A stretch of 64,000 nucleotides of DNA from a virus (Duplodnaviria > Heunggongvirae > Uroviricota > Caudoviricetes), in the IMG/VR virus record IMGVR_UViG_2531839661_000004; one strand, written 5' to 3'. A program made the position numbers. Every line of letters starts with the position of its first letter. Positions within the stretch are counted from its first letter, which is position 1. Shown piece after piece: positions 48,001-54,000 of this stretch.

Positions 48001-51000
48001 AAACTTTCCACTGTTCTGGTTTTAGCCATCTGCCGCACCACTGAACCTGTCGGGAGATATCAGCGACCATCGCGTGAAATTTGGCATTTTGAGCGAGATT
48101 ACCCTTGTAATCGGTGATACGGATCGTAATGGGCTTGTCTTTATCGAGAGTTGTTGCAAGGATGGCGTTAATGGCAAATTGTTGCTGCTGCTTACTTCGG
48201 AGGAAGATAGTCTGGTTCATTATTCCCTCTCATTGGATTTTCCCAACAAAAAAGGAGCCGAAGCTCCTTTAGTTTCAGAATTCAAATTGTCTTGCCCGTA
48301 GTTGCGCCAGCATGCTTCTGGCCCTATGCACCATATAGTTGGCGGGATCAAGTTTTGCTGCTTCGCGGAGCAATGTGTCGCGAGTCCGGTTGGTTATATG
48401 ACGAGTCTCGTAGGCCAGATCAAACAGTTTCCCGTAGTAATCAGAGTTCAGTTCTCTCATGACTGGGTATAGCTGCTTACTGAGTTGTTGTGCTTTTTCC
48501 ATCCAGAGTTGAACGTAGCAGAGTAGGATGATGTCTTCTGCTGTGAATTGCGGCTGAATATGAGGTTGTAGCGGTATAGCGCTTTTTTCAGCTTCACGGT
48601 CCAGAATATCCAATACCCAGCGACGGAACTCTTTGGCTACTGGAGTTGTTGCGAACATCGCTACCAGGTGGGCACCGCGTAGAGAGAAAATACGCACATC
48701 TTTCTCTCGTAAGCTATTGTTGATCCCGTTGAACCTCATTTTGAGGTTGATTGACATACAAGGAGTAAACTCATCCGAATTGCGGTTGTATATCTGGGTG
48801 ATTTTATCGCCGCGCGAATACTCCAGTGCAGAAGCCAAAGTCGCGGCGGTGAACCACTGTTTGCCGTCGTGTTCGATCGTTTCAAGAACGTGGGATTTGA
48901 ATACGAGTTGAGTGCTCATAGTTTTATGTCCTTGTATTTTTTGTTCAGAATCCCTGTGTTCAGCAGGGCGGTCGGGTACTTGAACACCGCATACAAGAAC
49001 GGCCCGTATCCTTAGCCTTGCGGCTGTTTTTCGGTATACGCGCTACCCGACCATATCTGAAAAATGGACATAAAAAATCCGCATGACTGACGGGTGCGGC
49101 TTCCGCTTGTATAGGTGTGTTCAGCACCTTGGTGCGAAATATATCCCCGTTAATGCGGATTTGTCAAATCTGGCCTTAAAACTCGAATTGTCTTGCACGC
49201 AGGCTTTTCAGCATTGGCATGGCCCGCTGGATAACGGAACTTGACATGTCGAGACGTGTTACCTCCCTCAGTAACGCATCTCTGTTCTTCGTCACCATGT
49301 AGATGGTCTCAAACGCAATGTCATACAGCTTGCTCGTGTATGAGGAGTTCAGCTCTTTCATAATGGGATACAGGTGTTTGCTGATGTTCTGGGCTTTTTC
49401 CATCCAGAGCTGCATGTAGCAAAGGAGGATGATTTCCTCGGCTGTGAATTGTGGCTGAATCTGCGGCTGCTGTTCGGTTTGTGTTGTTTTTCCCTGGCTG
49501 AAATAGCAGTCTTCCAGTTTTTCGAACACTTCCCATGCCTGATCGGTTTCGAGCATTTTTGCATGACGGGCAGCGCCGCGTTCTGTCCAGAGGATGAGGT
49601 GCTTTGTACGCGGTGCAACTAAGTTACTTTGAGTAACCTTGTTCTTAAATTCCCGCAATCCAGCCCCTTCCAATTTGAAGTAGTGTTTCCCACAAACAAA
49701 ACGCTCGGCATTGCGTGTATAGTTCACTTTGATGTTATTAGTTTCGGTGCCATAAAGTTGTGCCAAAAGCTCGGTGGTAATAACAGGAATCTGGTTATGG
49801 GTAATCGGGGAGATGGTTTCAACAGAGATTTGAGTTGTCATAATGACGCCCTCTAGTGGTTTCTAAACTATCACCACCGTAAGGTTCCAATCATCGGGTG
49901 GTGAGACGCACAGGGTTGGAACTACCGGGAAACCGACCGGCGAGCTTTTCAGCTCCCCCATGCGCCCCACCATAATTCAGATGTGCGCGTGCATACGACA
50001 ATAAAAAACACGCCCGCGGCGTGTGTTTGTCGCGGTCTCTATCCGGGGTTCCAATCCCGACGCCAGATTTTGCTGGCGTGCGAAGAATATAATCCCGGAT
50101 ATGTGTTGTCGTCAACAAGTGGCGTGCTATCATCGAATAGTGTTCTATCCTACTCAGTGAGGTTTAACATGCGTACAACCCAACAATTCAGCATTACATT
50201 AACCAACGAAATGGCTGACATGGTGCGCGCCCGTGTGGCTTCCGGTGCATACGCTTCAGAAAGCGAAGTTATTCGTGAAGGGCTTCGTGCACTGAATGAA
50301 CGCGACAAAGCAATGGAAGCGTGGTTAATACACTCAGCCGCGCCGCCACTCGACGCTATTCGTGAGAACCCAGGCAAAGGGCACTCCATTTCACAGGTTC
50401 GCTCTGAGATTCGCGCCCGGAAGTAATCTGCATGGCATATGAAGTGCCACACTAACAAACTGCTCCAGGTATGGGAATAGTGTCACTTGCAGCACCTATT
50501 AGAGATCCGATAATGAACATCATAGCAAGGTTCTTTTATTTGATAATTTTCTGCATGGCAACATCAGGATGCACTACCACTACGAAAATAAATCGCGGAG
50601 ATGAAAAGGAACAGTACATCATTGCCTGTGGTGCCGCTACACCATGGGGAGTATGCTATGATAAAGCCAATGCCCTATGTAAAAATGGATATAAAGACAT
50701 TTTAAAGGAACAGGGATTTAACAGGAAAGAATTAACCATTGAGTGTAAATAAGGCCATCATTTGCAACGTTGAAAAAATTCGCCCGTGCTACAGGGAAAA
50801 AACTCCAGATCCGCTTCGTTTAACTACGAGGATTACCACTAATGGCGATGTTTAACCCCCCTCATCCCGGAGAAATTATTGCTGATATTCTGGAAGATCA
50901 GAATATTGGAATCAGGGAACTGGCAAGAGCGCTTGATGTCGCGCCTTCCACTGTTCAGCGACTGGTTTCAGGTAATGCGACAATATCTCCTGAAATGGCT

Positions 51001-54000
51001 GTTCGTCTCGCTGCTGTCCTGGGTGGAACTCCGTCTTCATGGATTCGTCTCCAGACGGCATGGAGCCTTGAAAAAGCGGAAAGAGAAGTTGACGTATCTC
51101 ATCTCTCAACAAAATACCGCCCGGCAGAAATTTCGCCTCATGCTTAACCACCGCGCCGTCATTCTGGCGGCGCTTTACCCCAGAGAAATATCAATCACCG
51201 GATTGCCACATCCCACTCCGGATCCTGCCATCTCAAATCCGGTGAATCATTTCTCGCCGGAATAACCATTACGTCCTTTTCCCTCCGCTCCCTTTCTATC
51301 GCCATCACAGCCAATGCTGCAACCATGATGTATTTTTGTTCGTCGGTTCCTGTTTCATAACGACGCATGAGGGTAAACTCGGGGCGATCAGTAACCTCAA
51401 TGATTTCGTTAATTTCTTTAATTTCGAGAGGAATATCCATGAGTTTAGTCTCCTTTGACATTACATGCCCACACTGTTTAAAAGAGCGAGCTGTTATTGA
51501 GGCATTTGCCGAAAAACAAATTGAAAAAACACCTCTTTTTAACGTCGCTTTTGTATGCAGAAGTTGTCATCGAGGAGGTGTTGCTATTGTTGAAATCCCA
51601 TCAGACCACTATCACGGCCCCATGGCGGAAAGCCAGAAAAAAGACCTCGATATTCTGATTTCAGGAAATAGCCAGTACCGTTTCCGCAAGATCTATCCTG
51701 CGGTCAAAAAAATTACCGCACCAGAATATACGCCCCCGGTTGCAGACCGTACTTTTGTTGAGGCAAAAGAGGATTTACAGAGGAGGCGGTACGACACAGT
51801 GGTAATTCTTTGTCGCAGAGTCCTCGATATCTCCACGAAAAAACTGCTCGGCGATGAAGCAGGAAAAGAATCGCTGTCGCAACGTATTCAGATGATTTAC
51901 AAAAAAGGGCTGATCACTGAACAGATGAAGGAATGGGCTCATATTGTACGAATTGATGCCAATAAAGCAGTTCATACAGATGAAGTTTTCACACCAATTG
52001 AGGCAAGCCAGATCCTGAGTTTTACCGAAATGTTTTTAGTCTACGCCTTCACTCTGCCTGCAATGGTGGCAGCCAGACGTGAACAAAAAAGATCAGATTC
52101 AGCCTCTATATGAATCACTTTTCTGAACACGTAAGCCCCCGTCATTCACGACGGGGAGAACATCAATCCCTCTGCACTCCCCCGCCAGAATGCCAGCACA
52201 CGCTGCATCGTTTCGCTGTTACGGCACTCGCGACAAATTATGTTGTAGCGTCTGTCGTAGCGCCGGATTTCCCCATCAGGTAATGCCCGGATAAGACCAG
52301 GGTCAATAACAACCGGTTTCTTTGCCTTTGCTCTCGAGAGTTTTTTGCGGGCATTTTGCCAGTCCTTACGCGCCTGATCAGACGGGAATAAACCATAACC
52401 TGAGTCGAATATAGCGCCACTGACAACCAGTTCTCTGGACAAACGTCTGACAGCTGTCTTGCTGACTCCGGTTTCAGTAGCCAGTTGCCTGAACGTTCCC
52501 CGACCATTCAGGCGCACGAGCTCCACAATACGTGCCTTCAGTTCTTCCCGCTGTTCGGGTGTAAATACTTTTGCCATAAGCTCTCCAGTTATCACTTTTC
52601 CGATGCAATACTGCTGGATGAATCGGTAATCTGCATGACAAGTTCCCGGTGTTTATTCAGCTCACGTAGTGCAGCACAGACACGCTCCCACTTCTGGACC
52701 TGTTTTTTGGCGCGACGAAGTTCACGACTGGCGGCCCGTAGAGGTGGAAGGGTCACTGCACCAGCATATTTTTCGGTGAACGACGGAACATCCCGGATAA
52801 ACTCATCTGTACAGGCCTTTGCCGTGCCCTCTGACATCAACGGAAAACGATTCAGTTCGTCGCCTGACGCGCTGTTTTCTGCTTCGTGTGTGATATTCTC
52901 ATCCTGCGATGATGACGCGCTCAAATCGCCGTTTTCGACGTCAGGCACTTTATAACGGAATTTTCCCTTGATAGACACGCGCACCAGGCGCCCCGTTGCT
53001 GTTACTACCGCCAAAGTGGAAGCAACCTTACGAGTGGTAACTCCGAACTTACCCGCTATTTCTTCACAGGTTTTAGCCCCCTCCTGAGCGATAAACTCAA
53101 TCATCATGTCAGCGCTAACTTTTGGAGCGACCTCTTCGGTTACCACATCCGGCGCTTCAGATTGTAGTGCCTGCCCTTCGGTTACCCCGGATTCACCTTC
53201 GACAGCCAGAAACCAGGTGTGACCCGTTTTATCAACAACACCATTTTTTTTGAGTTCCCACAGTTCGTTGAGAACTTCTTCACGGCTGATATCAAGCCGC
53301 GCCGCCAGTTCAACAGAATTGGCTTTACCCATCGCTTTCAGTGCATGCAATACGGTTTCCATCGAAAATTTACCTCGTCAAAAATTCTCACATACCCTGA
53401 CGCCCAACGTTTGACCGCCAGCTCTCCCAGTTAAAATTCACCCAACGACCACCGTTCATGGTCATACGGTCCATCACCCGCTCGCCGAGGAGTGTGCTCA
53501 TCGCTGCGTGATTCAGGTTCGTCAGCATCCCGACACTGCGCAGTGATGCCGTTCTGCGGTCGACGATCTGGTTCAGTATGACCTGCTCGTTGCGCGTATC
53601 CCGCTGCATGCCAATTTCATCCAGGACCAGAAGGTCAACTCCACAAAGCTCCTGTAAAAATTTCTCACCAGACTTGCCGTTGTCGTAGCCGTCATGCAAC
53701 ACACTCATGACATCGGACACGGTGACGATAATCACGCTTCTCCCCTTCGCCATCAGCCGATTACCAATCGCTGCTGCAAGGTGATTTTTCCCGGTGCCAG
53801 GTTTACCGCTGAACACGAAATTCGTGCAGCCGGTATGCAGCTCTGCCGCGATGGATTTTGCCTGACTCAGAGCATGGCGCTGACCGTCGTTCTGCACCCG
53901 GTAGTTCCCGAATGAGCACTTCCTGTGAAGCGGCTGGATGCCCGAACGATTCAGGATTTTTTCAACCCGCGTCTGGTGATTCTGGCGGTTAACTTCCTCG

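Follow-up and report, generated by a model that had tools for sequence, protein, structure and literature searches.

We analysed a 64,000-nucleotide stretch of the IMG/VR virus record IMGVR_UViG_2531839661_000004 (Caudoviricetes), hereafter the window, which is 100% identical to the 933W-like Shiga toxin (Stx) 1a prophage of E. coli 2013C-4282. The subject of this report is a group of genes in this prophage that includes a candidate anti-phage gene, encoding a 224-aa protein with a zinc ribbon and a HEPN domain. The early-right operon of the prophage runs on the minus strand in the order cro, cII, O-like, DnaC-like, DUF1627, DUF977, two antirepressors, ninB, Q and stx1. Four plus-strand genes lie between the DUF977 gene and the ORF6N antirepressor, both of which are on the minus strand (Table 1). 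This group had been described as an opposite-strand island in an earlier reading made without database searches (the sequence-only reading), and all of the genes described there are present. The proposed left end at 49983 proved to be a GTG extension; the real parD start is at 50169, and the extended open reading frame (ORF) overruns the minus-strand genes of a C4-type and an IsrK-type small RNA (sRNA). The same reading treated the group as a single island and overlooked an 81-aa minus-strand gene, which is the only neighbour conserved with the zinc-ribbon/HEPN gene and which divides the island into two independent cassettes. Of 5426 complete E. coli genomes, only 3 have the full five-gene arrangement.

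Table 1. Features of the locus and its flanks, with positions in the window.
Feature	Position	Strand	Evidence
ORF6N/P22AR antirepressor, left flank, early-right operon	49176..49841	-	PF10543 E 4.7e-20, PF10548 E 2e-7, PGAP
C4-type antisense RNA, 5' of antirepressor	49894..49977	-	Rfam RF01695, 71 bits vs gathering score 45, full-length
IsrK-type Hfq-binding sRNA	50003..50079	-	Rfam RF01394, 77 bits vs gathering score 50, full-length
Promoter, sigma-70-like (TTGTCG-16-TGcTATCAT), of the toxin-antitoxin slot cassette	50106..50133	+	Promoter scan, consensus match only
ParD (ribbon-helix-helix) antitoxin, orphan, no parE after it	50169..50426	+	PF03693 E 1.5e-7; TIGR02606, 53 bits vs cutoff 46
Small Cys-rich lipoprotein, in place of parE	50513..50752 (PGAP start 50480)	+	phrog_9924 E 9e-50, function unassigned
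Decayed junction: 3' remnant of another helix-turn-helix antitoxin gene and last 22 bp of higB	50755..50841	+	blastn
HigA (HTH_3) antitoxin, orphan, cognate higB deleted	50842..51147	+	TIGR02607, 88 bits vs cutoff 48; PF01381
GC-rich hairpin 3' of higA	51153..51173	+	dG -16.5 kcal/mol, z -2.95, then only UUUA
Small partner gene, 81 aa	51195..51440	-	phrog_8371; co-directional with the phage operon
RAZR-like protein, 224 aa	51439..52113	+	PF13643 (DUF4145) E 3.8e-9, 36.9 bits vs cutoff 23.1
Zinc-ribbon CxxC knuckles C10, C13, C40, C43	51466..51567	+	Invariant in 31/31 family members
Putative catalytic motif R171-I-D-A-N175-K-A-V-H179	51949..51975	+	R171, D173, N175, H179 invariant (31-member alignment)
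DUF977 gene, right flank, early-right operon, after replication genes	52146..52577	-	PF06163 E 3.6e-28

The 224-aa protein consists of a zinc ribbon (residues 1-52), a variable insert and linker (53-95) and a DUF4145/HEPN domain (96-224). A DUF4145/HEPN-like domain, an N-terminal Cys4 ribbon and an R-x3-N-x3-H motif had all been proposed by the sequence-only reading, and all three were confirmed by the Pfam score and by the invariance of the four cysteines and of R171, N175 and H179 in a 31-member family alignment (Table 1); P87, P95 and P99 are invariant in the same alignment. An AlphaFold2 monomer model with a predicted local distance difference test (pLDDT) score of 89.7 showed a beta zinc ribbon, with strands at residues 4-6, 20-27, 33-40 and 46-52, followed by the insert and linker and by a helical C-terminal domain that has the four-helix up-and-down core of HEPN proteins. 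The top Foldseek match of the model was the HEPN toxin 7AE6/7AE8, in agreement with the suggested fold; this is the structure that was superposed in the paper on the defence protein RAZR (PMC13017515). The canonical HEPN motif Rx4-6H was not found in the protein, in which seven residues, including a central Asn, separate the Arg from the His (R-x7-H). The family profile matched the RPB9 zinc ribbon weakly (E 0.26), and a BFVD structure search with the model gave two unnamed matches and was uninformative.

Relatives of the protein (n = 83), nearly all of 212-224 aa, come from Enterobacterales, plus Paraburkholderia. Mean pairwise identity within the family is 45% in the ribbon, 27% in the insert and 65% in the HEPN domain. 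The clade is large; clustered at 50% identity, it has 213 clusters at E<=1e-30 and 1414 at E<=1e-10. Among the best 150 family representatives RxxxNxxxH was present in 138, and two CxxC pairs were present in 117 of the 134 that are full-length proteins. Homologues of the gene are unannotated or overlaid by a wrong-strand ORF in several deposited phage genomes, as in phiBt-TXDOH (locus record L023, 2384-3289), Klebsiella phage 2b LV-2017 (L024, 2501-3130) and phi644-2 (gp54/gp55, L022).

RAZR (ring-activated zinc-finger RNase) is the new name of PD-T7-4, the system of E. coli UMB1727 described by Vassallo et al. (PMC9519451; PMC13017515; PDB 9Y9C, 9Y6U). Its Cys4 zinc ribbon is N-terminal and its DUF4145/HEPN domain C-terminal; both R146 and H154 are required, as the substitutions R146A and H154A abolish defence, and the protein alone is not toxic (Zhang et al., PMC13017515). 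Activation takes place through the assembly of 24 RAZR copies around a ring-shaped phage protein, either the portal or the Erf-like Gp77, and the activated protein cleaves single-stranded RNA non-specifically; the zinc ribbon sets the specificity and is the most variable part (PMC13017515). The window protein has both the N-terminal Cys4 ribbon and the C-terminal DUF4145 domain with the Arg and His that are catalytic in RAZR. The sequence-only reading did not recognise the combination as a named system, and this has to be revised, as zinc ribbon plus DUF4145 is the RAZR/PD-T7-4 architecture, of which the window protein is only a distant relative.

For the comparison, a 219-aa RAZR_Ec sequence was rebuilt from two partial database proteins, and all residue numbers given in PMC13017515 check against it. 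BLASTP aligned the window protein with RAZR_Ec at 27% identity over 109 aa, covering the linker and the HEPN domain (E 1e-5); in the linker, IYPAVKKITAPEYTPP of the window protein pairs with IIPAAGNVELPNPDMP of RAZR, preceded by an insert of 25-35 residues that is absent from RAZR. Alignment of the two family profiles with hhalign gave a probability of 83% (E 8e-6), and the window family profile found PDB chain 9y9c at E 0.087 with R-x3-N-x3-H aligned exactly. In a joint alignment of both families the four Cys, P99, E108, R171, N175, H179 and E182 are invariant and the global alignment is collinear, C10/C13/C40/C43 falling on RAZR C16/C19/C49/C52 and R171/N175/H179 on R146/N150/H154. RAZR thus shares the deviant R-x7-H spacing, and both residues are essential there; the motif is therefore a DUF4145-type variant and not a canonical one. 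The PADLOC PD-T7-4 model (PDLC04109) matched 15 of 31 family members, with a best E of 2.8e-7. The 150 best window-family representatives scored a median of 148 bits on the hidden Markov model (HMM) of their own family and at most 33 bits on that of the RAZR family. Judged by these comparisons, the window protein is a distant, sister-clade relative of RAZR and belongs to a separate clade. As for RAZR itself, 120 database relatives among the matches listed are all shorter than 175 aa, mostly 146-171 aa, with two CxxC pairs in 3 of the 120; these may be proteins with mis-called start codons or may represent a common ribbon-less or half-ribbon form.

The small partner gene is divergent from the zinc-ribbon/HEPN gene, and its ATG, read from 51440, overlaps the ATG at 51439 by 2 nt within a common CATG. 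In a Paraburkholderia prophage a 60-aa ORF is arranged in exactly this way, and it is 36% identical to the small ORF of the window (pairwise E 3e-7). We retrieved 80 IMG/VR loci via the HEPN protein family and examined 91 loci in all; a homologous small ORF was present at a start offset of exactly +1 in 54 of the 91 (34 distinct pairs), at which the HEPN proteins are only 40-52% identical to that of the window. Retrieval in the reverse direction, with a peptide pattern taken from the small protein, yielded 32 loci, all of which carry the HEPN gene in divergent orientation. In the indexed protein database, homologues of the small ORF were limited to close E. coli copies. The homologues in Paraburkholderia and at the IMG/VR loci led us to reject the view that the small ORF is a lineage-specific leftover and to drop a reading of the HEPN gene, based on four contexts, as a stand-alone single gene. 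The pair occupies three or more kinds of position: it lies at the replication/ninB junction in the window, and elsewhere at the lysis/terminase junction or, in Paraburkholderia, in the early region. It therefore travels as a unit. The flanking phage genes always share the direction of the small gene, and in the contexts examined the HEPN gene is always antisense to them.

In the family alignment of the small protein I10, R19, P20, E21 and L24 are invariant, about 54 residues form a conserved core and the tail is variable. No Pfam match and no significant PDB match were found for this family. An AlphaFold2 model, built from a shallow alignment, showed helices at residues 5-16, 20-28 and 33-57 and a disordered tail, with a pLDDT of 82-89 for residues 1-50. 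In a mirror-tree comparison the divergence of the small protein correlated with that of the HEPN domain at r 0.83 and with that of the adjacent zinc ribbon at r 0.51. This difference is suggestive of a small protein that tracks the HEPN domain, with linkage and saturation as confounding factors. The right-hand cassette is exchangeable within the limits 51437..52186, as phiSTEC1589-Stx1c is 98% identical to the window over 51149-51436 and again from 52187 and has a sense-strand gene for a 166-aa protein between these stretches. This protein (L014, 2186-2686) had no Pfam or PADLOC match, and its gene may be an alternative cargo of the same hotspot.

The reading that we favour, with a confidence moderately better than even, is that the window protein would be a RAZR-like defence RNase carried as prophage cargo, with antitoxin neighbours that are unrelated to it. 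It agrees with the earlier proposal of an opposite-strand anti-phage or abortive-infection cargo. Several observations weigh against this reading. The window protein itself reached only E 1.3e-3 (16 bits) on the PADLOC PD-T7-4 model, through its HEPN part only; phmmer found no match for it among PDB sequences; and the RAZR structure 9Y9C was not among the structural matches of the model. Profile methods aligned the linker and HEPN domain and not the zinc ribbons, and the insert of the window family, which follows the second knuckle, has no counterpart in RAZR. In the monomer model the motif segment, residues 171-180, forms a loop of low confidence (pLDDT about 50). A promoter search of the 290 bp upstream of the HEPN gene, even with relaxed rules, showed no sigma-70-like site. 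With respect to the partner gene, subclades in which the HEPN gene adjoins the gene for the terminase small subunit, HNH or xis have no small gene, and phiSTEC1589-Stx1c keeps the small ORF (98% identity) without the HEPN gene; the pair is therefore not obligatory. In addition, the homologous gene is antisense and stands alone in four relatives of about 50% identity.

If the favoured reading is correct, a lysogen would make the RNase from the antisense cargo gene of the 933W-like Stx1a prophage. The variable N-terminal zinc-ribbon module would act as the sensor and bind an assembly of the invading phage, the bound assemblies in the case of RAZR being ring-shaped oligomers of the portal or of an Erf-like recombinase. 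Binding by the sensor would bring the HEPN domains into an arrangement in which R171, N175 and H179 form active RNase centres; RNA would then be cut, translation would stop and the infection would abort.

The layout of the gene pair suggests how the prophage might deal with such a protein. Since the start codons overlap, each mRNA should start within the opposite gene, so that the two promoters would be convergent and each transcript would be antisense to the other. Furthermore, the small gene is on the strand of the lytic operon, so that pR transcription, once induced, would cross the HEPN gene in antisense. After this crossing, the pR-driven transcript would yield the small protein, and the small gene together with the antisense transcription might constitute a shut-off, self-immunity or regulatory device. 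The prophage encodes ring-formers of its own, a portal (32636-34780) and Bet (62239-63024), which makes a shut-off or self-immunity role attractive; a regulator role is equally conceivable. A role of the small partner as an inhibitor and a role as a regulator are each proposed tentatively, and neither rises above a minority possibility in our judgement. The more specific idea, that the three-helix protein is a lytic-cycle self-immunity factor, with antisense silencing and neutralisation of pre-existing RNase sparing the prophage from activation by its own rings, is likewise speculative and is offered here as a possibility that we consider unlikely on balance.

The alternative that survives best takes the small protein not as an inhibitor but as a DNA-binding regulator that would repress or switch the HEPN gene from the control region in which the two genes overlap, comparable to the controller protein of a restriction-modification system. 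Autoregulated pairs are typically divergent and overlap at their 5' ends, the model of the small protein has a compact three-helix core, and its family profile matched the winged-helix DNA-binding domain of RFX1. This match was weak and not significant (E 0.72), the small protein had no Pfam helix-turn-helix match, the sequence around the shared start showed no conserved operator-like repeat, and the subclades without the small gene apparently manage. We regard a regulator as rather unlikely, with a probability well short of even.

It is less likely still that the zinc-ribbon/HEPN protein serves the cycle of its own phage, for example in RNA processing, host shut-off or lysogeny control, and not in defence. 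The gene is carried by viable, inducible Stx phages, Shigella phage 75/02 Stx (100% identical protein) and POCJ13 (99.6%), and the PHROGs label of the family is 'DNA binding protein'. We found no experimental basis for this label, which is probably due to the zinc ribbon. The gene is antisense to every surrounding lytic operon, it sits in cassettes that are swapped in and out, and it is a patchy accessory gene, present in 37 of 5426 complete E. coli genomes. The closest characterised relative is a defence protein. A function in the own cycle of the phage appears improbable.

The left cassette tells a different story from that of the gene pair. Pairwise blastn against sibling prophages placed recombination breakpoints at about 50116, 50820 and 51148, and at the first of these the homology of sibling phages stops at 50115-50117. 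Neither ParE nor HigB was found by tblastn across the 64-kb window. Homologues of the window ParD are followed by ParE in an IncP plasmid (54% identity) and in another E. coli prophage (87%); homology to a ParDE locus stops at 50445, 19 bp past the parD stop, and the lipoprotein gene comes next. The lipoprotein is 100% identical across 44 Stx phage records. Its signal peptide ends in ..MATSG|C, a lipobox read from the sequence, and its mature part has 60 aa with 4 further Cys; a role in surface exclusion is conceivable. Beyond this gene, 50755-50825 matches the 3' end of a higA-like gene of PhiR5_2 at 96% identity. The sibling prophage of strain 2014C-3307 (L002), to which the window is 100% identical over 50820-52300, has the identical HigA preceded by a HigB toxin (PF05015 E 1.4e-21), and only the last 22 bp of higB survive in the window.

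In the sibling phages L002, L005, L014 and L015 the slot of about 50116-51148 holds HigBA, a RelE-like toxin with a helix-turn-helix protein, or TumE with an HVO_A0114-type winged-helix protein. Near int in Stx2a phages, the block parD-lipoprotein-higA (49739-51172) is found again, there without the HEPN gene. The mosaic breakpoints and the unrelated toxin-antitoxin (TA) types in the slot show a TA hotspot that is adjacent to the HEPN block and separable from it. This separate slot recombines freely, and the ParD and HigA that it holds in the window are both orphan antitoxins; they may be debris, may repress the cassette promoter or may act as anti-addiction factors. The hairpin that follows higA is a weak terminator at best, and its weak U tract makes read-through from the TA promoter possible.

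These observations bear on the view that the whole island is one composite TA or abortive-infection system, in which a HEPN toxin would be paired with HigA, ParD or both as antitoxins or regulators. The sequence-only reading had taken the antitoxin-like neighbours as a sign of such a system; they are orphans in a slot of their own, and their cognate toxins are found in sibling elements. An identical HigA does precede the block of small ORF and HEPN gene behind three different upstream arrangements in E. coli, and transcripts from the TA promoter may read into the HEPN gene, which has no recognised promoter. Nevertheless, this HigA is paired with a canonical HigB in sibling prophages, the ParD homologues are paired with ParE, the breakpoint at 51148 divides the TA slot from the HEPN block, and the slot is filled by unrelated TA types in other phages. 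Relatives of the HEPN protein at 40-52% identity have no antitoxin neighbours, and the lack of toxicity of RAZR alone also speaks against a toxin in need of an antitoxin. A composite system is thus highly improbable. It is hardly credible that the region consists of decayed mosaic debris and has lost all current function. The two orphan antitoxins and the gene remnants do show decay of the TA slot, but the HEPN gene and the small gene are both intact, key residues of both proteins are invariant across relatives at 35-50% identity, and about half of the changes in the small ORF among close variants are synonymous (9 synonymous, 10 non-synonymous).

The flanks of the island belong to the phage operon. 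The C4-type RNA is part of the conserved flank and lies outside the island. The IsrK-type sRNA has a terminator hairpin at 50008-50024 (dG -18.3 kcal/mol, z -3.0) and, in a minus-strand scan, a promoter-like site at 50115-50086, which overlaps the divergent promoter-like site of parD. On the right, the DUF977 gene matches phrog_142 ('Ren-like exclusion protein') and stands where lambda has ren, past the replication genes. Other RNA genes and small toxin genes were noted elsewhere in the window. Two copies of sRNA-Xcc1 (Rfam) were found, one between the two antirepressor genes at 48962-49052 on the minus strand (68.6 bits) and the other in the adjoining prophage remnant at 3899-3987 on the plus strand (71 bits). 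A full-length match to the STnc100 sRNA (195 bits) lies at 43564-43777 on the minus strand, just downstream of stxB1a (43856-44125). A sok antisense RNA at 6889-7063 on the plus strand (111 bits) accompanies a Hok/Gef gene at 7058-7213 in the degraded prophage remnant adjoining ynfF, and in the Stx prophage the Lom-like gene has a second Hok/Gef gene next to it (19779-19919).

RAZR has so far been known from two close homologues, and the locus described here points to a large sister clade of at least 213 clusters (50% identity) with a different sensor module. This clade is carried by temperate phages of Enterobacterales, Shiga-toxin phages included, in which superinfection immunity affects the spread of stx. 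By sequence comparison, the conserved divergent small partner sets the window subclade apart from RAZR as described, and this start-overlapping gene provides a handle on how a prophage may escape its own structure-sensing defence. If the self-immunity reading were true, it would be a protein-based answer for prophages whose defences sense conserved phage structures, and the small protein would be a natural inhibitor of RAZR-type proteins. The locus also calls for caution, as its antitoxin-like neighbours appear to be orphan debris of a TA hotspot and give no sign of a composite system.

Among known systems, HEPN and zinc-finger domains also occur together in DS-38 of DefensePredictor, a validated E. 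coli defence protein (PMC13092281). In DS-38 the HEPN domain is N-terminal and a multi-zinc-finger region is C-terminal, which is the opposite of the window protein, and we rejected an identity with DS-38 (WP_001313577.1, 366 aa) on account of this reverse domain order and of the unrelated sequence. BxaP and Ishtar1 also use a DUF4145/HEPN effector domain in defence (PMC10799925; bioRxiv 10.64898/2026.07.06.735840), in their case as an N-terminal DUF4145 fused to a C-terminal HEAT-like or beta-rich domain, with no zinc ribbon. The HEPN-MNT toxins (PDB 7AE6/7AE8, 5YEP, 7BXO) have the canonical Rx4-6H motif, whereas the window protein has Rx7H, an extra N-terminal zinc ribbon and no MNT nucleotidyltransferase partner. 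The window HigA and ParD pass the curated NCBIfam cutoffs of their families. A type II HigBA system includes a HigB gene (RelE fold) upstream of higA, and a type II ParDE system a ParE gene downstream of parD; complete TA pairs occupy the cassette slot in sibling phages, whereas the toxin gene is absent for both in the window, with the lipoprotein gene in the place of parE.

BstA is a prophage abortive-infection protein with built-in self-immunity through the anti-BstA (aba) element, a DNA element inside the bstA gene. The likeness to the present locus is one of concept only, that of a prophage abortive-infection gene with a linked element that spares the lytic cycle of its own phage; the candidate in the window is a separate small protein, and its role is putative. 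The closest comparison remains that with RAZR. The window protein is 19-20% identical to it overall and 27% identical over the linker and HEPN domain, and most members of its family have the divergent small partner gene, whereas RAZR has been described as a single-gene system; no divergent small gene was found at a RAZR-clade locus (one locus inspected). On the other hand, the two proteins have in common a CPHC first knuckle, a Pro-rich linker that can be aligned between them and a length of about 220 aa, and in both the sensor half is more variable than the effector half and the gene is carried on a mobile element.

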